NCBI GenBank assembly: GCA_000999095.1
Contig: LCFP01000004.1
Coordinates: 80,930-144,929, forward strand
From: Candidatus Gottesmanbacteria bacterium GW2011_GWA2_43_14
Lineage (GTDB): Bacteria > Patescibacteriota > Microgenomatia > 2-02-FULL-39-11
Reading direction: 5' to 3'
Length of the DNA: 64,000 bases
In this document: positions 3,091-57,898 of the stretch, piece after piece
Layout: each line of letters begins with the position of its first letter
How positions within the stretch are numbered: position 1 is the first letter of the stretch
The notes under the pieces: generated by a model
Seen by the model: only the letters and a program-made list of their open reading frames with translations
What the model was told of the DNA's origin: nothing
Databases searched by the model: none
Made by a program: the position numbers and the translations under genes

Positions 3091-4455
3091 ATGAGAAACA
3101 TATTTAAGACACTGAAAATCGGGAAATACCGGGAAGAGAAACTGGATTTAAATATCTCTGCCTTCGAGGTATTTAAGAGGCTTTATCCGCATTATAAAAA
3201 CCTCTTTTTATTGGAATCTTTAGGCGAAGAAGGCCGTTATAACCGTTTTTCTTATGTAGGAACTGCCCCAGATACGGTTTTAACTGCTATAGGTAAGGAA
3301 TTGATTATAGACGGAAAGTTACAGGAAAAAGTTAATCCTTTTGATTACCTGCGCCACTTGCCCAATATCAAATCAAGATCAAGCGGATTTATAGGCGGTT
3401 TAGTCGGTTATTTTACCTACGAAGCCGCCGGCTATTTTGAACCGGGCTTTAAGGGTTTTGAAAATAGCGGTTTTCCCGAATTTAGTTTAGGTCTTTATCT
3501 AGACGGCTTTATTTTTGACAAAAAAGGCCGTAAATGCCGCTATTTCCATTATGGCCGTTCAAGATTAAACCATTTCCTCAAACTGATTAATATGACAACC
3601 GGTAGATTGGCTGATTTTTCTTTTCAACCGTTAAGAAAACCTGATAAACAAAAACACATGGAAATGGTCAGTCATGCGCTTGAGGAGATAAAGAAAGGTA
3701 ATATTTTTCAGGTAGTTTTAGCTGACAAAAACAGTTACCGAATAAGCGGAGATTCCAGAAGGATTTATGCGGCTCTCCGCCAGGAAAACCCGTCACCTTA
3801 TATGATTTATCTTAAATTTGATAACCGGGAAATAATTTCTGCCAGTCCGGAGCTTTTAATTAGAGTTAAAGGCAAACAAATTGAACACTATGGAACCTTG
3901 GCCGGAACAATCAGAAGAGGCCGCGATCCGGATGAAGATCTTCGTTTGGAAGAAAAACTTAAAAATGACGCAAAAGAACAGGCCGAGCATCTGATGCTGG
4001 TTGATCTGGCCAGAAATGATGTCGGACGGATAGCCCAATTCGGTTCAGTGACGGCAGAAAAGATGGGAAGCGTCAAGAAATTTACCCATGTCCAGCATTT
4101 ATTCACAGAAATTCGGGGAAAACTCTTAAACGGTAAAAATTATTTCGATGCTTTAGCAGTCTGTTTCCCTGCCGGAACATTGACCGGCGCTCCGAAAATA
4201 GAGGCCATGAAGATAATAAAAGAGCTGGAGGGAGAATGCAGGGGACCGTATGGCGGTGTCGCCGGTTATTTTTCATTTAACGGTGAATCGATGCTGGCTA
4301 TACTGATCCGCTCTCTGTATATCAGGGGTCAACTGGCTGTAACCGAAACCGGGAGCGGTATTGTATTGGATTCAATCGCCGATCGTGAATTTAAAGAAAT
4401 TGTGAATAAACAGAAGGGCATGGAAAAAACTCTCCGGAAAGCGAGTGTGATATGA
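3091..4455 (+). CDS. trpE: anthranilate synthase component I
   Basis: Chorismate-binding enzyme signature (LMLVDLARNDVGRIAQFGSV, GAPKIEAM). Length 454 aa. First gene after the T-box leader. Confidence 0.9.
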   Translation: MRNIFKTLKIGKYREEKLDLNISAFEVFKRLYPHYKNLFLLESLGEEGRYNRFSYVGTAPDTVLTAIGKELIIDGKLQEKVNPFDYLRHLPNIKSRSSGFIGGLVGYFTYEAAGYFEPGFKGFENSGFPEFSLGLYLDGFIFDKKGRKCRYFHYGRSRLNHFLKLINMTTGRLADFSFQPLRKPDKQKHMEMVSHALEEIKKGNIFQVVLADKNSYRISGDSRRIYAALRQENPSPYMIYLKFDNREIISASPELLIRVKGKQIEHYGTLAGTIRRGRDPDEDLRLEEKLKNDAKEQAEHLMLVDLARNDVGRIAQFGSVTAEKMGSVKKFTHVQHLFTEIRGKLLNGKNYFDALAVCFPAGTLTGAPKIEAMKIIKELEGECRGPYGGVAGYFSFNGESMLAILIRSLYIRGQLAVTETGSGIVLDSIADREFKEIVNKQKGMEKTLRKASVI

Positions 4456-42587: not shown

Positions 42588-42644
42588 ATTGGCTTAATAA
42601 TACAGCCTGGATTATTAAGAAATTATGAAGATTTTTTGGGAAAA

Positions 42645-50315: not shown

Positions 50316-51318
50316 TTATTTCAGATATTTGTCAAAAAATTGAAGGGATCTGGCGGAAATTTGCGCCCAGCCTAAATTGCGAAAATTGTGGTCCTGTCCG
50401 GGATACTCAAAATACTCAACCTGTTTACCTGCCTGTTTCAATGCTTCGTTCAGCTCTTTTGACCAGGCGGGATCCACTTCGGTATCAAAAAGCCCCTGGT
50501 GGAGGCTTACCGGAGTTGAAATGTAATTTAGAAAATCAATAGGGGAGGCACTTTCGGTGCCTTGATTGTTATTTGCGACTGGGCGTCTACCTCCGTAGAA
50601 TCGGGCATTATCGGAAACACGGGCGCTGGTGGGAGCCCATAAGACGAGAGCTTTGATTTTATCGGTTGCTTCAACCACCCTCAAGCCAACCTCTCCGCCC
50701 TAACTGTGCCCCCACATGCCGATTTTTTCCAGGTTAAGGAAAAGACCGTCAGATTGGTCTTGGGGATTCTTTAGATTTTTTAAGGAGGCAAGAAGGTTTA
50801 AGACGTCAATGGCATATTCGCCGGTGTCCGCGTGATACCCGCCCGTCATCCTCACTATTGCCGTGGCCACGATAGTCTGAAGCCAGGGTCAGATAGCCGT
50901 TGCGGGCCATAATATCCGCCATGGTTTGTGTGCCGTCGCCGCTTTTAAATGAGGTATTATTGAAATAGCCGTGATTGAGGATGATAACGGGAAAACCTCC
51001 GGCAGGGGATTCACCAAAGGGTATATTCATACGGCCGTAAATTTTCAGGCCGTCTGAAGAATATGAAAAAAGGTAACCGCTGTAAGAACCGTTGCGCTCA
51101 ATTTCATTTTCTATTTTAAACTCCCCATCTCCGTATGAGCGTTCCCGCAGGGAGTCAATAAAAGAAGGCTCTTTGTTTTCTTGAGGATCTGAAAAGTTTT
51201 TATTTGCGGATTCCGGTGAAGCTTCCTGTCCATTATTGCCCTGATAGAACTTTTGGAGAAGACTGAAACCGATTAAAACCGGAATAAAAAATAATAAGGG
51301 AAAGAAACGTTTCATCAA
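50316..51318 (-). pseudogene. secreted alpha/beta-hydrolase (dienelactone hydrolase/peptidase S9-like) disrupted by a frameshift and an in-frame TAG
   Basis: N-terminal part (50806..51318) has a signal peptide and runs to YRGHGNSE. C-terminal part (50316..50684) carries the Asp/His region (GQDHNF). The bridging sequence in a third frame reads ...IGMWGHS*GGEV..., i.e. the GxSxG nucleophile motif interrupted by TAG (plus strand cta at 50700..50702). A frame change lies near 50860. Confidence 0.6.
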
Positions 51319-51497
51319 CTAGCATAATTTTGGGGATCAGCTTCAAAGGTTTTTTGGCAGTTTTCCGAGCAGAAATAGTAGGTTTTGCCATCATGGTTGC
51401 TTTTATATTCCGCTTTTTCAGGATCGACCATCATTTTGCAAACCGGATCTTTAACCTTGTTTTTATTGGCGGAAAATAATTTATCTAAGAAACTCAT
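51315..51497 (-). CDS. YHS-domain metal-binding protein
   Basis: DPVCKMMVD...YYFCSENC is the YHS/TRASH motif. Start placed at the ATG at 51497, which forms an ATGA overlap with the upstream DUF305 stop. Confidence 0.7.
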   Translation of the reverse strand: MSFLDKLFSANKNKVKDPVCKMMVDPEKAEYKSNHDGKTYYFCSENCQKTFEADPQNYAS

Positions 51498-51865
51498 GGA
51501 TTTGCCTCCCATTCTTTTTGCCACATTTTCATTTGTTCAATTTCGTTCTCTTGAGCTTCTATTATATCATCTGCCAAATTTTTGATCTCTTCATGCATGC
51601 CTTTTGCTTTCGCTTCTTTGGCCATTTCAATGGCGCCTTCATGATGGACCATCATCGAGTTCATGAAAGCCATATCAAAATCTTCCCCTTCAGCCTTTTC
51701 CAGTGATTGCATCATTTCATTCATGCTGGAATTCATGGTCATCATGCCGCTGCCACCCATCATATTAGCAGGTTGAGCCTGCTGTCTGTTGTAACCTGTT
51801 ATGAGAACTGTTAACAGAATCCCGGCGATAAAAGTTGTAATTGCCAATAAATAATTATTTTTCAT
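51494..51865 (-). CDS. DUF305-family protein (Met/His-rich, copper-resistance-associated)
   Basis: Signal anchor. Met-rich stretch (MMGGSGMMTMNSSMNEMM) and the DUF305 motif MMVHHEGAIEMA. SD sequence GGTGA upstream. Confidence 0.7.
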   Translation of the reverse strand: MKNNYLLAITTFIAGILLTVLITGYNRQQAQPANMMGGSGMMTMNSSMNEMMQSLEKAEGEDFDMAFMNSMMVHHEGAIEMAKEAKAKGMHEEIKNLADDIIEAQENEIEQMKMWQKEWEANP

Positions 51866-51879
51866 TTCAAATCACCGCC

Positions 51880-51900
51880 ATCTATAGATAAGTATCTATA
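51880..51900. promoter_or_regulatory. palindromic operator-like site in the DUF305 promoter region
   Basis: ATCTATAGAT (10-bp perfect palindrome) overlaps TATAGATA-ag-TATCTATA (8-2-8 inverted repeat), 15-37 nt upstream of the DUF305 ATG. A related AGATA-tt-TATCT palindrome lies at 50223..50234. Confidence 0.4.
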
Positions 51901-51949
51901 AATATTAGCATAACAAAGATTAAGATTCCATGAAGAAAGACAGATTCAG

Positions 51950-52612
51950 TCAGACCCGATGGTGATCGATGCCGCGGTAGGCTTTAATAAATTTTTCTAT
52001 TCTCTCTTCATTAAACTCATTGAATTTATCCAACTTGGTCCAGGCTGTCAGGGCGATTTTAGTATCAAGCTGAGGGTAGGGGGCAAGTATTACTTTATCC
52101 TTATATTTTTTTATGACGGCTGTTAATCCGGCAACCAGTTTTTGGCATTCATCTTGCCCTTCGGCACTGTCAGTGGCCTCTTTTTGGCTGTCCCCATCCG
52201 GCGTGCAATTATACTGTACCATAATCCCGCCGTCCTCCAGATTATGAAGCTGGAGTTCGTCAGGAATAGGGGACCCGCTTACTCCCCAGGGGGCTTTATT
52301 ATTCACGTGGGTACCTGAAGTCGGAGGCAGGGAATTGTAAGATTCGTGGGTATCGGTGATGTTTTGGATATGTTCATTGCCTAAGGTGGGGACAAATTCC
52401 CCGGGCTTCGGTTTAGAGGCTTCTCTGATAAACCAGTATCCGCCAGCAAGAAACACCAAACAAGCGGCAATAATTATTCCGTATTTCTGCAACTTACCCA
52501 GCCGCAGCTGTTTATTCATCTGTTCCCGGTAAAATGCACGTTTTATCTTCCTGCGTTCTTTTTTGGGTAATCCTTCAGGTAAATCAGGTCTGTTTTTCAT
52601 AACAGATTTCAC
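51950..52612 (-). CDS. DUF3105-domain protein
   Basis: N-terminal TM segment, then LGNEH...PPTSGTH...HNLEDGG motifs typical of DUF3105. Confidence 0.65.
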   Translation of the reverse strand: MKSVMKNRPDLPEGLPKKERRKIKRAFYREQMNKQLRLGKLQKYGIIIAACLVFLAGGYWFIREASKPKPGEFVPTLGNEHIQNITDTHESYNSLPPTSGTHVNNKAPWGVSGSPIPDELQLHNLEDGGIMVQYNCTPDGDSQKEATDSAEGQDECQKLVAGLTAVIKKYKDKVILAPYPQLDTKIALTAWTKLDKFNEFNEERIEKFIKAYRGIDHHRV

Positions 52613-52725: not shown

Positions 52726-53466
52726 TTATTTTAAGGCTGCATCAATCATAGGCTTGATACTTTCATAGGGAAGAGCCCCGGGTATAAGCTGGGTACTGCC
52801 ATTTTCAGTCAGAATGATTGTACCGGGAGTTCCAGTTACACCTTCTTCACTTCCTTTGGCCATCTGGTCCTGCACTTTTTGGGTATACTTACCCGAGTCA
52901 AGACATTTTTGGAATTTGGTCTGATCAACCCCTACTTCATTGGCCAGGGAACCCAGTTTGTCCAGCGCAAAGCCGGTGCCATTGGAGGTCGTACGCTCAA
53001 AAATGGCATCAATATATTTCCAAAAAACGTCATTGCCTCCCAATTCGTTGACACACCAGCCTGCCTCCGCTTCTTTTTGTGCATTCTGATGAAAGTTTAA
53101 AGGGTAATCACGATACACCCATTTTACTTTATCACCGTATTCTTTCATGACCTGCTGCATGGTGGGATGAAAATTTTTACAGTAGGGACATTCCAGATCA
53201 GAGTATTCAATAAGTGCTACTTTGGCGTTTTTGTTGCCTCTCACGCGGTCATCACTTTCCAATTCCGGCTTTTTGGCTGCAGGTTGGGGAGAGGGGATTT
53301 GCGCGGAAACGGTGTCGTTTCCTCCTGTCCCGGCCTGGATTTCCGCCACGCCCGGGTTTCCTTTTTCCAGAAGTTTAACTTTGGTGTAAAGGGAACCGAT
53401 TGCAAACGAAGCGACAATTAGAAGGGCAACCAGAATTAATGAGCTTTTAGATTTTACTTCAGACAT
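52726..53466 (-). CDS. DsbA-family thiol:disulfide oxidoreductase (BdbD-like)
   Basis: Signal anchor. Thioredoxin-fold CxxC (ECPYCKNF). Confidence 0.8.
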   Translation of the reverse strand: MSEVKSKSSLILVALLIVASFAIGSLYTKVKLLEKGNPGVAEIQAGTGGNDTVSAQIPSPQPAAKKPELESDDRVRGNKNAKVALIEYSDLECPYCKNFHPTMQQVMKEYGDKVKWVYRDYPLNFHQNAQKEAEAGWCVNELGGNDVFWKYIDAIFERTTSNGTGFALDKLGSLANEVGVDQTKFQKCLDSGKYTQKVQDQMAKGSEEGVTGTPGTIILTENGSTQLIPGALPYESIKPMIDAALK

Positions 53467-53468
53467 AT

Positions 53469-53485
53469 TACTACAAAGTGTAGTA
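53469..53485. promoter_or_regulatory. BlaI/CopY-type operator (perfect 7-3-7 palindrome TACTACA-aag-TGTAGTA) abutting the dsbA-like start codon
   Basis: Perfect inverted repeat located 2 nt upstream of the ATG (minus strand) of 52726..53466. A near-identical site lies upstream of the BlaI/CopY-like gene (54817..54833). Confidence 0.5.
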
Positions 53486-53510
53486 GTAAAGCTGACGGTT
53501 TGTCAATAGG

Positions 53511-54446
53511 TCAAAGCGGGAGTATATAAAGTCCGGAACATGAATGGTGGCATTCTGTATTCGGGCGGCAAAAAGATTTATGTCCCCCGTTTTCCGGACC
53601 GGTTTCCGCAGTTGACACTGAAGATAAAGCAAACACCAGAAAAATTATAAGAGTGAAAAAGGTTTGGAGGAGATTTTTAAGTGAGGGTTTTTTGGCGGGA
53701 ACTTTCAGATTAAGAAGCGCCTTTATTCTGGCCTCAAGAGTTTCGTACGCGTTTAATCCGGCAACCGCCGGCAGGGGAGCGGGTTTGTATGTTATGAGTT
53801 TTTTAAGAACATCTGACAGACAGTATTGGTCATTTTTTTGCCGGATGGCCTGCCGGTCAGCCTCAAGTTCGCGATTCAGTCTGTAATTTCCTATCAGATC
53901 TGAAACAAGCGGAAAGAAGGGAAATAAGCATTGGGTTAGATCGGCCAACAAAAGGGTGGCCGTATCTTTGTTTTCCAAATGGTATTTTTCGTGGCGCAGA
54001 ATGACTGCCAGTTCCTTCAGGCTAACCAGCCTGATAATTCCGGTGGTTATGAATATCCTAGGGTTTAAAAAGCCAAAGCAAAAAGCGGTCGGAGCATTTT
54101 TTGGGAGGATCATTACTTTATTTTCCAAACCTAAATCTTTAATAAGTCTTCTCGTCCGTTTATTCCCGGTAACCAGCGGGGAAAGGGTGCGGCTAAAGCG
54201 GTATATTTTAAAGAACGAGATAAGCAGTTTTATGGCAGTATGGAGTATCAGTAGGGACAAAAATATAAAAATAAAATCTCCAACAAGAGGGCTTGAGCCA
54301 AATGATATGTTTTTTACCATTTCCCGACAGTAATAAAGCGCATGATGAAAAAAAACCGGAAAAAACCTAAACAATATTAACAGATAACCTGATATAAGAA
54401 AGGTAAAAAGAAATGAAAAAACAAAAAGATATTTATTTATTTTCAT
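53511..54446 (-). CDS. M56-family peptidase, BlaR1/MecR1-like transducer protease domain without a penicillin-binding sensor domain
   Basis: 4 TM segments plus a zinc-protease motif HEKYHLENKD (compare BlaR1 HELYHxxRxD). It overlaps the upstream repressor gene by 14 bp. 311 aa, and there is no C-terminal PBP domain. Confidence 0.7.
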   Translation of the reverse strand: MKINKYLFVFSFLFTFLISGYLLILFRFFPVFFHHALYYCREMVKNISFGSSPLVGDFIFIFLSLLILHTAIKLLISFFKIYRFSRTLSPLVTGNKRTRRLIKDLGLENKVMILPKNAPTAFCFGFLNPRIFITTGIIRLVSLKELAVILRHEKYHLENKDTATLLLADLTQCLFPFFPLVSDLIGNYRLNRELEADRQAIRQKNDQYCLSDVLKKLITYKPAPLPAVAGLNAYETLEARIKALLNLKVPAKKPSLKNLLQTFFTLIIFLVFALSSVSTAETGPENGGHKSFCRPNTECHHSCSGLYILPL

Positions 54447-54813
54447 CCGGATTGGCCAATAATTTTAACAGGCGCTTTTTTTTATCCTTGGGGAGCCGTT
54501 CGATCGATTGGGCAAAAGAGGCAACCGCCGAATCGCCAAAGGAAGAGAAAAACTGGCGCATAAATGACCGGGCGGCGCTTTTACCGTAATCGACTTTTGA
54601 AATTTTGGGAAAGTAGTACAGGCGGGAATCATGAGTTTCCTTCAAGACTAAGCCTTTTTGATAAAGGCGGGAAAGGATGGTGGCCACGGTAGTATAAGCA
54701 AGTTTTTTCTTAAGGTTGATTTTTCTCACGACATCACGCACAGAACAATCACCGCATGCCCAGACAATTTCCATAATCAGTTGTTCCAGATGGCTTAATG
54801 ATTTGACGGACAT
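54433..54813 (-). CDS. BlaI/MecI/CopY-family transcriptional repressor
   Basis: Penicillinase-repressor winged-helix N-terminus (LSHLEQLIMEIVWACGDCSVRDVVRKI...TTVATILSRLYQKGLV) and a C-terminal dimerisation helix. Confidence 0.8.
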   Translation of the reverse strand: MSVKSLSHLEQLIMEIVWACGDCSVRDVVRKINLKKKLAYTTVATILSRLYQKGLVLKETHDSRLYYFPKISKVDYGKSAARSFMRQFFSSFGDSAVASFAQSIERLPKDKKKRLLKLLANPDENK

Positions 54814-54816
54814 ATT

Positions 54817-54833
54817 TACTACAGAGTGTAGAA
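54817..54833. promoter_or_regulatory. BlaI/CopY-type operator (TACTACA-gag-TGTAGAA), autoregulatory position
   Basis: TACA/TGTA dyad typical of BlaI/MecI/CopY boxes, 3 nt upstream of the repressor ATG. It shares a roughly 20-nt conserved block (CTACAC-T-y-TGTAGTAA-ATATGTC) with the site at 53469. Confidence 0.5.
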
Positions 54834-54866
54834 TAGGATTAATTAAATTTCAACAAGGAGATTGGA

Positions 54867-57161
54867 TCAAACGGTTACTAAATCCTTTTCCGCACGGTTA
54901 AGAAGGACGGCGTTGGTGGCGACAATGATAGAGGAGATGCTCATCAGAAGCGCTGAGATTTCCGGTCTCAAGATAATACCGTATTTGGGATATAAGACTC
55001 CGGCGGCAACAGGAATGGCCAGCAAATTATAGATTGAAGCCCAAAAAAGGTTTTGCTTCATTTTGGTAACGGTGGCTTTGCTTAGACGGATAGCCCTTAA
55101 AATATCCGCCGGATCGGATTTCATCAGAACTACCTTGGCGGTTTCGATGGCCACATCAGTACCGGCTCCGATGGCAATGCCGATGTCAGCCTGGGCAAGG
55201 GCGGGTGCGTCGTTGACCCCGTCACCGACCATGGCGACAAATTTTACTTCTTTTTGAAGTTTTTTGACGTATGAGGCTTTATCTTCTGGGAGCACTTCAG
55301 AAAAGATCCTATCTATATTAAGCTGCTTGCCGATAGCCTCTGCAGTTTTTTTGTTATCTCCGGTGATCATCGCAACCTCTAACCCGAGCTCCTTCATGCG
55401 AGTAATCGCTTGCTTGGCGTTTTCCTTCACAGGATCAGAAGCGGCTGCGACACCAGCAATCTTAGTGTTAACTGCAAGTACCATAATTGTCTTGCCCCCT
55501 GAGAAAAGTCTATCTATATCATTTTGAAGTGGTGAAATATCAACCTTTGAATCTTTCATTAATTTTACGGTTCCCACAAGTACATGCTTACCGTCAACTA
55601 CTGCCTCAACCCCATGGCCTGCTAGATTTTTAAACTTTTCAACCCTGGTAGAAATACTGACTTTTCTTCTTTTAGCTTCCTCTAAAACCGCCAGACTCAA
55701 CGGGTGCGAAGATTTAGCTTCGGCTGCAGCGTCAAGAGCAATAATATCGTTCTCGGTAAATCCTTTGGAGGCAACAACATCAGTAATTTTGGGCTTGCCT
55801 TCAGTGAGGGTTCCAGTTTTATCAAGAACGACAGCCTGGATTCGTGAAACCTGTTCGAGAGTAGGAGCATCTTTAATTAAAATATTATGTTTGGCGCCAA
55901 GGCCTGTTCCGACTGCTACAGCAGTAGGGGTGGCCAGGCCTAAAGCATCGGGGCAGGCAATTACTACAGTTGATATGGCAAAAGTCAGAGCGAAAAGTAG
56001 AGGCTGTCCTAATATAAAATACCAAACAGCAAAAGTCAGAAGACCTCCTCCTACTGCCACAATCACCAGATATTTGGCAAAACGGTCGGCCAGTTTCTGG
56101 CCGGGAGCCTTGGAATTTTGGGCAATTTCAACCATTTTGACTATCTGGGCCAAAGCTGTGTCAGAGCCAATTTTGGTCGCTTTGAATTTGACTGAACCTG
56201 AGGTATTGATTGAACCACCAATTACCGTATCACCAACACTTTTAGTAACAGGCAAAGATTCTCCTGTCACCAGGGATTCATCAATAGCAGTTTCACCATC
56301 GATGATTTCTCCATCAACCGGAATTTTATCTCCAGGCTTGAGAATAAGAATATCCCCGAGTTTGACTTCCGATGTAGGCACAAAAGTCTCTTCCCCGTCT
56401 TTCCAGAGCCTTGCCTGTGGAGGAACAAGATCAAACAATGCTTGGAGGGCATCTGTAGTCCCGCGTCTACTTTTCATCTCCATCCAATGACCAAAGAGAA
56501 CAAAGGTAGTGAGCATGGCCGCGGCTTCATAGAATGATTCTTCACTGCCCAGGAGTGATAAGACGACACTGAATACGTAAGCCGCAGTAATACCAACAGC
56601 AATCAGAACCGCCATGTTAAGAGTTTTGGCTTGCAATGCTTTGTATGTTGAGTAAAGAAATATCCAGCCTGAATAAAAGAAAACGGGAGTAGTCAAAAGA
56701 AACATAATCCAATTGGCAGAAATTGGCGTTGGAAGCCTTAACCCCAAAATATTTGTACCAAGCGGAGAGTAGGCAATAATAGGCAAGGTGAGTATGAGGG
56801 CGACAAAAAACTTATTGCGGATGTCTTCTTCCATGAGTTTAGCCATTTCCCGTCCCGCTAAACCCCCATGCTCCATACCCATCGCCATAGTCATGCTAAT
56901 CTTGAACTTTTCCCAGGAGGACATCTCTGAGACAGGTTTCATCATATGCTCGCCATGTTTCATAGCCCCATGCTCGCCCGCTTTGCCCTTCGGGCTTCGA
57001 GGGGCAGGCATTCCATCGTGGTTCATTTTACCCTCTGCTATTTTTTTATCCTTCATAGCATTAGCGACGAGGGGCATCCCGCATTTTGGGCAAGTCCCGG
57101 GTTTACTCCGATGTACATCGGAGTGCATCGGACATGTATAATTTTCGGTTTCTGAGGTCAT
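54867..57161 (-). CDS. P1B-type heavy-metal ATPase with a Cys4 N-terminal metal-binding domain, a His/Met-rich linker and an atypical CPD transmembrane motif
   Basis: N-terminal CPMHSDVHRSKPGTCPKCGM (HMBD/zinc-ribbon-like). His/Met-rich segment (HDGMPAPRSPKGKAGEHGAMKHGEHMMKP...MTMAMGMEHGG). TM6 reads IACPDALGLATP, confirmed on the DNA at 55936..55952. DKTGTLT, YN and MSISS motifs, and GDGVNDAP. Confidence 0.9.
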   Translation of the reverse strand: MTSETENYTCPMHSDVHRSKPGTCPKCGMPLVANAMKDKKIAEGKMNHDGMPAPRSPKGKAGEHGAMKHGEHMMKPVSEMSSWEKFKISMTMAMGMEHGGLAGREMAKLMEEDIRNKFFVALILTLPIIAYSPLGTNILGLRLPTPISANWIMFLLTTPVFFYSGWIFLYSTYKALQAKTLNMAVLIAVGITAAYVFSVVLSLLGSEESFYEAAAMLTTFVLFGHWMEMKSRRGTTDALQALFDLVPPQARLWKDGEETFVPTSEVKLGDILILKPGDKIPVDGEIIDGETAIDESLVTGESLPVTKSVGDTVIGGSINTSGSVKFKATKIGSDTALAQIVKMVEIAQNSKAPGQKLADRFAKYLVIVAVGGGLLTFAVWYFILGQPLLFALTFAISTVVIACPDALGLATPTAVAVGTGLGAKHNILIKDAPTLEQVSRIQAVVLDKTGTLTEGKPKITDVVASKGFTENDIIALDAAAEAKSSHPLSLAVLEEAKRRKVSISTRVEKFKNLAGHGVEAVVDGKHVLVGTVKLMKDSKVDISPLQNDIDRLFSGGKTIMVLAVNTKIAGVAAASDPVKENAKQAITRMKELGLEVAMITGDNKKTAEAIGKQLNIDRIFSEVLPEDKASYVKKLQKEVKFVAMVGDGVNDAPALAQADIGIAIGAGTDVAIETAKVVLMKSDPADILRAIRLSKATVTKMKQNLFWASIYNLLAIPVAAGVLYPKYGIILRPEISALLMSISSIIVATNAVLLNRAEKDLVTV

Positions 57162-57181
57162 AATTTAATGATACAAGATTT

Positions 57182-57847
57182 TCATTTCGAATTCCCTGAA
57201 ATAGCGGATTTAGCGATCATTTCGTCCAGAAGAAGTTTTACATTGGGAATAAAACCGGGAACTTCGTTTTTATATACTTTGTACACCGACCCGAATTTCC
57301 TGAGCATCTTTTTTTCTTCACTTTTTGCCAGACGGATGTAGCGGAAAATAAGGATCGGCGCCATGACAAGCGTTATAATGGTTGGCCACTGGATGAGAAA
57401 ACCAACAATTATAAGGATAAAGGCCAGATATTGAGGGTGGCGCAGATATTTATAGACACTAATAACAGCCAGACTTTGTTGCTTTTGGGCTTTATAAAGG
57501 ACTTCCCAGGCTTTACCCAAAAGAATTAACCCTCCGATAATAAGCGCGTAACTGATGATATGCAGGATATTAAAGTGAGGATCACCTTTCAGACCCAACA
57601 GGGTGTTTAATATATGACCGTTGTTGTGTGTAAAATCCAAGCCTAACCGACTTCCAAAGAACGAAGTTAACAGGTAAATTGTCAAAGGAAATCCATACAT
57701 TTCGGCAAACAGCGCGACTATAAAGGCTCCAAAGATACAGTAAGTCTGCCAATCAATCTTTGTTCTTGGTTTGAAAGCGCTATAAATAAAATAGAGAAAA
57801 AGAACAATATTGAATAAAACCAGAAGCCAGTTACCATACTCATACAT
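57182..57847 (-). CDS. isoprenylcysteine carboxyl methyltransferase (ICMT/PEMT)-family membrane protein
   Basis: C-terminal region RHPQY...EE..L...FG..Y..Y is characteristic of the ICMT family. 5-6 TM segments. Confidence 0.65.
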   Translation of the reverse strand: MYEYGNWLLVLFNIVLFLYFIYSAFKPRTKIDWQTYCIFGAFIVALFAEMYGFPLTIYLLTSFFGSRLGLDFTHNNGHILNTLLGLKGDPHFNILHIISYALIIGGLILLGKAWEVLYKAQKQQSLAVISVYKYLRHPQYLAFILIIVGFLIQWPTIITLVMAPILIFRYIRLAKSEEKKMLRKFGSVYKVYKNEVPGFIPNVKLLLDEMIAKSAISGNSK

Positions 57848-57898
57848 ATACGAACAGTGTAACAGTAAGAGATTAAGAATTTATGAGGCCTTTATCAA

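Follow-up and report, generated by a model that had tools for sequence, protein, structure and literature searches.

A putative N3-spaced BlaI/PetR-type operator fused to the promoters of a repressor-protease operon and a DsbA-like gene in Microgenomates

The stretch of DNA analyzed here (the window: 64,000 nucleotides of Candidatus Gottesmanbacteria bacterium GW2011_GWA2_43_14, contig LCFP01000004.1, positions 80,930 to 144,929) contains a co-directional cluster of minus-strand genes, in which two near-identical palindromes lie directly before the start codons of a gene for a repressor of the BlaI/MecI/CopY family and a gene for a DsbA-like protein. The cluster runs in the order DUF302 protein, ICMT-like methyltransferase, P1B-type ATPase (copA), site B, repressor, M56 protease, site A, DsbA-like protein, and then DUF3105, DUF305, and YHS proteins. 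The intergenic gaps holding the palindromes measure 44 nucleotides (nt) at site A and 53 nt at site B, and the M56 gene overlaps the repressor gene by 14 nt. The central genes and elements are as follows.

54433..54813, minus strand: BlaI/MecI/CopY-family winged-helix repressor, 126 amino acids (aa); PF03965, E=3.4e-25
53511..54446, minus strand: M56 (BlaR1-like) membrane zinc protease lacking a sensor domain, 311 aa; PF05569, E=2.7e-14; stop codon 53513..53511
52726..53466, minus strand: membrane-anchored DsbA/ScsC-like thiol-disulfide oxidoreductase, 246 aa; PF13462 (Thioredoxin_4) and PF01323; CPYC at residue 93
53485..53469, minus strand: site A, putative operator TACTACActtTGTAGTA, TACTACA-ctt-TGTAGTA, a perfect 7-3-7 dyad
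53477..53482, minus strand: -10 hexamer TACACT of the dsbA-like promoter, within operator A, 10 nt before the A of the ATG
53501..53506, minus strand: -35 hexamer TTGACA (perfect) of the dsbA-like promoter, 18 nt upstream of the -10 and 4 nt past the M56 stop
54833..54817, minus strand: site B, putative operator TTCTACActcTGTAGTA, TTCTACA-ctc-TGTAGTA, with one outer-arm mismatch
54825..54830, minus strand: -10 hexamer TACACT of the repressor promoter, within operator B, 11 nt before the A of the ATG
54848..54853, minus strand: -35 hexamer TTGAAA of the repressor promoter, 17 nt upstream of the -10 and 14 nt past the copA stop

The dyad at site A is followed by AT and then by the ATG of the dsbA-like gene (53466..53464), a gap of 2 nt; that at site B is followed by AAT and then by the ATG of the repressor gene (54813..54811), a gap of 3 nt. 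An earlier note on this DNA, made from the sequence alone, had described two near-identical dyads placed 2-3 nt before these start codons, a perfect 7-3-7 copy abutting the dsbA-like ATG, and a shared stretch including the bases that flank the ATG. Our coordinates and sequences agree with this description: the perfect copy is site A, and the stretch common to the two sites is CTACACTnTGTAGTAA(A)TATGTC. The pair is also beyond chance. The 17-nt pattern with at most one mismatch has 2 matches in the 64 kb, against 0.00 in 100 dinucleotide-preserving shuffles, and the core CTACA-N3-TGTAG occurs in the window at sites A and B only. When 3 mismatches were allowed, a setting at which the test is powerless, there were 3 matches against 0.91 expected; the third of these (42598..42614) was set aside as being at chance level. 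The possibility that the dyads are terminators of the upstream genes was excluded by the terminator scan, which gave no intrinsic terminator at site A or B, and by the absence of a U-run after the dyads.

For comparison, we used 80 loci from species-representative genomes, retrieved via an alignment of 16 repressor homologues. Nearly all of them belong to Microgenomates (Gottesman-, Woese-, Levy-, and Roizmanbacteria) or WWE3, and seven to Bacteroidota; the counts for the candidate phyla radiation (CPR) were taken over 73 loci, some of whose contigs are truncated. In the 559 kb of these 80 loci, CTACA-N3-TGTAG has 110 matches against 0.23 expected, an enrichment of about 500-fold, and with one mismatch allowed there are 149 sites, the two of the window included. 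According to blastp against the window proteins, the gene directly downstream is BlaI-like at 64 sites, DsbA-like at 59, CopA-like at 2, and another gene at about 20; these other genes include those for a multicopper oxidase, DsbD_2 proteins with or without HMA and cupredoxin domains, a YtkA-like protein, and a DUF7282 protein. The motif matches in the window only at the two promoters and in the related loci almost only before repressor and DsbA-like genes. In the 70 nt upstream of the repressor gene, cTACA(A/C)TnTGTAGta stands directly before the ATG in almost every CPR locus, and the dyad accompanies this gene in about 60 genomes with 43-65% protein identity, always in the autoregulatory position. 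The operator of the DsbA-like gene lies about 1.4 kb further downstream, beyond the M56 gene, and has the consensus CTACTACAcTnTGTAGTA(G/A) over 55 unique related sites. Since the M56 gene is present in 69 of the 73 CPR loci and the DsbA-like gene in 50, this placement and these counts indicate that the repressor, the M56 protease, the second operator, and the DsbA-like gene form a conserved module. Phylogenetic footprinting thus strongly supports the earlier suggestion of a BlaI/CopY-family operator in an autoregulatory position with a second copy at the dsbA-like gene. The anatomy of the sequence, its conservation, and the membership of the regulon, like the protein family assignments, are direct observations.

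Aligning the 117 unique sites (62 repressor sites and 55 dsbA-like sites) shows practically no variation at the inner five positions of either arm. The right arm, TGTAGTA, is conserved as strongly as the left arm even though RNA polymerase needs no right arm, and we therefore take this equal conservation as the signature of a dimeric DNA-binding protein.

The dyads are at the same time fused to predicted promoter elements. In a consensus promoter scan of 7.5 kb, TTGACA-N18-TACACT (53506..53477) ranked first with 10/12, and TTGAAA-N17-TACACT (54853..54825; 9/12) was among the next-ranked; of the matches lying on the strand of the genes, these two score highest. Both -10 hexamers consist of the last four bases of the left arm and the first two bases of the spacer. 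Because a conserved -35 and a gene-oriented -10 within the dyad place the start downstream of the left arm, the left arm would not be transcribed from these promoters. That the dyad contains a -10 box is further indicated by the asymmetry of the spacer, which a -10 box demands and a protein site of pure symmetry does not: Read toward the gene, 61 of the 62 repressor sites have TACAAT (37) or TACACT (24), whereas the hexamers on the opposite strand (TACATA, TACAGA, and similar) lack the final T. The hexamer TACACT is found in 38 of the 55 orthologous dsbA-like sites and a perfect TTGACA in 42 of the 55, with a spacer of 17-18 nt; at the repressor sites, the -35 matches TTGACA at 4 or more of 6 positions in 48 of 62, and in 40 of those 48 the spacer is 17 nt. 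Since both sites hold good promoters and leaderless starts are common in this genome, the likeness of the two sites could in principle reflect a duplicated strong promoter cassette (-35, -10, and start context) to which no repressor binds. We regard this as extremely improbable. The other predicted promoters of the window (those of copA, the ICMT-like gene, and others) are without the right arm TGTAGTA; this arm, unneeded by RNA polymerase, is invariant in the 117 sites and mirrors the left arm, and the roughly 500-fold enrichment of the motif likewise speaks against a mere cassette.

The earlier note had also pointed out that neither gene has a Shine-Dalgarno (SD) sequence. This is true of both genes but not special to them: SD-like 4-mers precede only 4 of the 61 long open reading frames (ORFs) in the window, which equals the background of 7%, and operon-internal genes such as that of the M56 protease (ATG at 54446) are likewise without an SD sequence. 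As this absence is genome-wide, it is uninformative on the two genes, which simply follow the habit. A -10-like hexamer ends 5-12 nt before 28 of the 61 starts in the window (46%, against a background of 19%; p=1.7e-6), and initiation in this genome seems to dispense with the SD sequence and to depend on short leaders or none. Leaderless genes whose -10 box closely precedes the start codon are found in Actinobacteria and Deinococcus and in lambda cI transcribed from pRM. The genes studied here resemble these in having a -10-like hexamer a few nt before the start and no SD sequence, with a gap of 7 nt in 13 orthologous loci, but they differ in the window, where the gap is 10-11 nt.

The distance between the dyad and the start codon in the related loci bears on the same question. 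At the repressor genes, the end of TGTAG lies 1-10 nt from the start codon in 60 of 62 sites. In 13 of these sites the distance is 1 nt; there the right arm ends on the A of the ATG itself, which leaves a gap of 7 nt after the -10, as is canonical for leaderless genes. The gap is 8 nt in 2 sites and 9 nt in 11. The dsbA-like sites are bimodal, with 1-5 nt to the start in 26 and 21-36 nt in about 24 of the 55, the longer leaders being AT-rich and mostly SD-less. Given a start 6-8 nt after the -10, the transcripts of the window are predicted to be leaderless or to have leaders of about 2-5 nt. The operator-overlapping or leaderless starts envisaged in the earlier note thus gain support from footprinting in the related loci. 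In the literature that we searched, we found nothing relevant on transcription start data for CPR bacteria or on leaderless transcription in CPR/Patescibacteria.

A different proposal was that the element acts on translation initiation; RNA hairpins 2-3 nt before the AUG, including those in read-through transcripts from copA or the M56 gene, would then modulate initiation in place of an SD sequence. The dyads can indeed fold, site A with its flanks reaching -10.1 kcal/mol (z=-2.2), and read-through transcripts carrying a hairpin are plausible because the gaps in the co-directional cluster are short and no terminators are predicted. However, we consider this proposal very unlikely. Site B folds weakly (-2.5 kcal/mol, z=-1.4, with 20 of 200 shuffles as stable; z=+0.45 in an 81-nt context), the arms are invariant over the 117 sites without compensatory change, and the complementarity of the outer pair (-1:13) is not kept at the repressor sites. 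The promoter geometry described above would leave the main transcript without half of the hairpin, the dyad lies 21-36 nt from the AUG in the longer-leader dsbA-like orthologues, and an Rfam search of the entire window gave no match. Taken together, the weak and inconsistent hairpin, the lack of covariation, and a left arm predicted to be untranscribed argue against a role in translation.

We therefore return to repression at the DNA level and to the protein that would bind the dyads. The match of the repressor to PF03965 ("penicillinase repressor") spans residues 6-120, and the protein aligns over its full length with MecI (1sd6 and 1okr), BlaI (1sd4), and Mycobacterium tuberculosis (Mtb) BlaI (2g9w); among solved structures, the recognition helix of Mtb BlaI (Rv1846c), whose operator is reported to be a dyad of the TAC(G/T)AC...GT(C/A)GTA type, is the most similar. 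A protein of GW2011_GWA2_4x has 100% identity to the repressor. The recognition helix, K36...AYTTVAT...L47, is invariant in the 16 homologues, paralleling the invariant half-sites. Also invariant is S99-F100-A101, which aligns with the N-F cleavage site of BlaI (VLNFAK) and MecI (VLNFVE). The C-terminal metal motif of CopY, CxC-x4-5-CxC, was not found in the repressor, whose C-terminus reads ...LLKLLANPDENK, and no cysteine occurs beyond residue 24 in the 16 aligned homologues. Being without CopY-type C-terminal cysteines, the repressor is unlikely to bind copper itself, and it therefore resembles the protease-controlled PetR and BlaI rather than the metal-binding CopY. We take the ATG next to site B to be the true start, since the N-termini of the 16 homologues line up there and helix 1 of MecI/BlaI follows, in the alignment, after only 5 residues.

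The spacing of the dyads differs from that of the classical CopY/BlaI/MecI box, TACA-N2-TGTA, later refined to RNYKACANNTGTMRNY. Both window sites are N3-spaced, as are all 110 strict matches, the latter by construction of the pattern, and no N2-spaced variant was visible in the orthologous upstream regions. The description of the element as a TACA/TGTA dyad of the BlaI/MecI/CopY type thus holds for the half-sites but not for the classical box, and identity with a classical cop box or with CopY was rejected on the N3 spacing and the missing CopY cysteines. The unusual spacing might instead suggest that the dyads are operators for some other transcription factor, encoded elsewhere, and not for the adjacent BlaI-like protein. 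This seems to us still less probable than the hairpin, since the dyad travels with the repressor gene, always in the autoregulatory position, in some 60 genomes; its TACA/TGTA half-sites are those of the BlaI/MecI/CopY family, the homologous PetR itself uses N3, and the recognition helix of the repressor is invariant alongside the half-sites.

The M56 protein, with its HExxH motif (HEKYH) at residues 152-156, gives a weak match to BlaR1 (8exs), and no Pfam domain corresponding to an extracellular penicillin-binding sensor was found in it. Its hydropathy suggests a topology in which the loop between transmembrane (TM) helices TM1 and TM2, with Cys40, lies outside, the K/R-rich HExxH domain inside, and the 34-residue tail after the last TM helix, containing H..C293-x5-C299-x3-C303, again outside. 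Among 69 M56 orthologues, H152/E153/H156, E193, Cys40, Cys123, and the Cys triad of the tail are kept at 86-97%, the tail motif being (E)xH...C-x5-6-C-x3-C. The conserved outside features lie at residues 38-40 and 281-311. From these sequence features, the Cys40 loop and the Cys tail are a candidate copper or redox sensor that would take the place of the beta-lactam sensor domain of BlaR1.

Among known systems, the nearest is PetR/PetP of Synechocystis sp. PCC 6803, in which PetR binds GACA-N3-TGTC and a sensor-less M56 protease degrades PetR only when copper is present. The two systems share a BlaI-type factor that lacks the Cys motif of CopY, a short M56/M48 protease that is co-transcribed with this factor, has HExxH, and lacks a penicillin-binding domain, an inverted repeat with N3 spacing over the core promoter where PetR represses, and a copper context. 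They differ in the half-site (TACA here, GACA there), in the lineage (CPR/Microgenomates here), and in the targets, which are DsbA-like, CopA, multicopper oxidase, and DsbD_2 genes here and petE/petJ, the plastocyanin/cytochrome c6 switch, in Synechocystis. In addition, nothing here points to an activator mode, and the -10 lies within the operator, which borders directly on the start codon. The candidate sensor consists of the outside Cys40 and the C-terminal Cys triad, whereas two methionines in a loop have been proposed for PetP. BlaI/BlaR1 and MecI/MecR1 of Staphylococcus aureus and Bacillus licheniformis resemble the present system in the full-length alignment of the repressor (1sd4, 1okr), the TACA/TGTA dyads, the autoregulated repressor-protease operon with an M56 partner, and the conserved Phe of the cleavage site; however, their boxes are TACA-N2-TGTA, their targets are beta-lactamase or PBP2a, and the extracellular beta-lactam sensor of BlaR1, about 250 aa, is absent from a protein of 311 aa in total with a 34-aa tail. 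CopY/CopR of Firmicutes (E. hirae, S. pneumoniae, and L. lactis) belong to the same protein family, control a copper-related regulon, and use a KACA/TGTM dyad that overlaps the promoter, but their cop box RNYKACANNTGTMRNY is N2-spaced, CopY senses Cu(I)/Zn(II) via its C-terminal CxC...CxC, and CopY has no protease partner. A description of this module or operator in CPR bacteria was not found in the searchable literature, which is incomplete.

Based on these findings, we propose a mechanism for the regulation of the two promoters. We think it highly probable that each palindrome is an operator for a dimer of the adjacent BlaI-family repressor, fused to a sigma-70-type promoter, that the repressor acts on its own operon and on the dsbA-like gene, that the messenger RNAs (mRNAs) are leaderless or nearly so, and that the M56 protease mediates induction. 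The repressor dimer would bind both dyads, whose left arm and spacer provide the -10 TACACT, with the -35 located 17-18 nt upstream, and whose right arm would cover the transcription start. The bound repressor may thereby block RNA polymerase both at the repressor-M56 operon (autoregulation) and at the dsbA-like gene. The predicted transcription start, 6-8 nt past the -10, precedes the ATG by 2-5 nt here and coincides with it in many relatives. Since the mRNAs would be leaderless or nearly so, no SD sequence would be needed. Induction could follow the BlaR1/PetP route: The activated, co-transcribed M56 protease would cleave the repressor at S-F-A. Activation itself may come from copper or copper-linked thiol damage acting on the Cys40 loop and the H/Cys-x5-6-Cys-x3-Cys tail. 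In this scheme, we infer the binding of the repressor, the transcription start sites, the proteolysis, and the signal.

The genes around this module are relevant to the nature of the signal, and they are arranged as follows.

First gene listed in the minus-strand cluster, minus strand: DUF302 protein
57182..57847, minus strand: ICMT-like methyltransferase gene
54867..57161, minus strand: P1B-type ATPase (copA) with an N-terminal heavy-metal-binding domain; stop codon 54869..54867
51315..52612, minus strand: DUF3105, DUF305, and overlapping YHS-domain genes, downstream of the DsbA-like gene

From the DsbA-like gene onward, the gaps measure 113 and 84 nt, and the terminator scan predicted no terminator in them; the DUF3105, DUF305, and YHS genes may be co-transcribed from the operator A promoter. 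Upstream of the ICMT-like gene (57848..57870, minus strand), a promoter-like TACACT, 8 nt ahead of the ATG, forms TTACACT with the T next to it and so looks like the left half of the operator. It has no right arm and may be a degenerate or half operator site or merely share the same -10 flavor. Upstream of copA (57162..57175, minus strand), TATCAT, 6 nt, and the ATG give a perfect leaderless geometry, with no dyad. In the Woesebacteria locus L002 (2634-2646), by contrast with the copA of the window, a dyad lies 29 nt upstream of a CopA gene; whether the ATPase is directly controlled therefore differs from genome to genome. An alpha/beta-hydrolase (peptidase S9/S15-like) frame at 50316..51318 (minus strand) is split into three ORFs that overlap or adjoin one another (50806-51318, 50700-50870, and 50316-50684), which suggests frameshifts, i.e., a pseudogene or assembly errors.

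Several of the related loci also deserve mention in their own right. In six Roizmanbacteria-like loci (L031:5219, L057:2911, L062:5215, L068:5353, L070:1057, and L072:1397), the second operator precedes the gene of a multi-pass membrane protein of about 490 aa, which stands where the DsbA-like gene otherwise is. A Pfam search with this protein gave no match; its conserved cysteine motifs are CSVC in the TM region and RPCCxNSTAFPDCNHG and GGGCGV at the C-terminus, and it may be an unrecognized thiol-redox or metal protein. In Marinifilum (Bacteroidota; L076-L080), the BlaI-like gene at 4001 is preceded, at about 25-45 nt, by the related dyad TCTACTA-tat-TTGTAGTAGA and by another, TACTAtaaaaaTAGTA. 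The spacing is unlike that of the CPR sites. The center of the first dyad is TAtaTTTG, and TAnnTTTG is the -7 promoter motif of Bacteroidota; the Marinifilum dyad may thus carry its lineage's own promoter element at its center. Finally, the loci L003, L006, L008-L012, L022, L030, and others contain the Microgenomates-type module and operator, yet their records are titled "uncultured Gammaproteobacteria" or "Pseudomonadales." Some of these contigs are single pieces of 0.9-1.0 Mb, typical of whole CPR genomes, and the titles look taxonomically mislabeled.

As for the signal, copper or copper-linked thiol damage is most likely the inducing trigger, sensed outside the cell by the Cys40 loop and the Cys tail. 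We favor copper because of the members of the regulon, the copper-themed cluster of the window (P1B ATPase, DUF305, DUF3105, and YHS proteins), the presence of a CopA gene at most 4 kb away in 25 of the 73 loci, and the likeness of the target to ScsC: Among the closest solved relatives of the DsbA-like protein are ScsC, the "suppressor of copper sensitivity," and copper-resistance proteins (6nen, 6mhh, 4xvw, and 4gxz). A serious alternative is that the same operator and promoter design serves a signal other than copper. The M56 protease would then monitor the extracytoplasmic thiol-disulfide state via its outward cysteines and tune the DsbA-like oxidase homeostatically, with copper genes as occasional passengers. 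Apart from the operon itself, the DsbA-like gene is indeed the sole universally conserved target (59 sites; 50 of 73 loci), DsbD_2 proteins recur among the targets, and the four conserved outside cysteines of the candidate sensor are natural substrates of DsbA; moreover, copper ATPases are near only 25 of the 73 loci, and the copA of the window is without a dyad. On the other hand, copper proteins in particular belong to the regulons of several genomes (multicopper oxidase, P1B ATPase, HMA and cupredoxin fusions, and YtkA-like proteins), the one characterized sensor-less M56/BlaI pair responds to copper, the cluster of the window is copper-themed, and copper-tolerance proteins of the ScsC type are among the nearest solved relatives of the target. 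On this balance, we judge a purely thiol-based signal to be rather unlikely, while noting that the two signals are not exclusive, as copper stress itself damages thiols.

Some observations weigh against the mechanism proposed above, with its repressor, leaderless promoters, and copper signal. All CopY/BlaI/MecI boxes that have been defined biochemically are spaced by N2, not by N3. The leaders of 21-36 nt in about 24 of the 55 dsbA-like orthologues mean that leaderlessness is not essential to the regulon, and a gap of 10-11 nt between the -10 and the ATG in the window is slightly long for a strictly leaderless transcript, so that a leader of 2-5 nt is likelier than none. The evidence for copper is circumstantial, given that a copper ATPase is near only about a third of the loci, that no dyad precedes copA in the window, and that the target under strict conservation is a thiol oxidoreductase.

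With these points in mind, we put forward a more specific view tentatively, at somewhat less than even confidence: In Microgenomates, one element of 17-19 bp may serve as operator, -10 box, transcription start, and often the first base of the start codon, and a sensor-less BlaR1-type protease may read copper or the thiol-redox state via four outward cysteines and thereby control DsbA/ScsC-like and copper-resistance genes. Operator-over-promoter repression and the autoregulation of BlaI-family repressors are already textbook knowledge, and no new principle is involved. What is new is a predicted N3-spaced operator of the BlaI/PetR type that is fused to the -10 and the start of (near-)leaderless promoters, together with a conserved regulon of DsbA-like and copper genes in Microgenomates.

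CPR/Patescibacteria are uncultivated, and almost nothing is known of their gene regulation. Here, a compact circuit consisting of repressor, protease, operator, promoter, and targets is legible from the sequence alone and conserved in about 60 genomes, and its defined operator-promoter pair can be tested in a heterologous host. The circuit offers a candidate for a new kind of sensor in the BlaR1 family, one for copper or thiol stress, as well as direct sequence evidence for leaderless or very-short-leader, SD-independent expression in these organisms. It would also extend the PetR/PetP paradigm, in which a BlaI factor with an N3 operator responds to metal and is controlled by a protease, to bacteria other than cyanobacteria. 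If the view of a single element under a protease that reads copper or thiols is true, the BlaR1/BlaI family would gain a mode of input not described before, and CPR bacteria their first defined transcriptional regulon.

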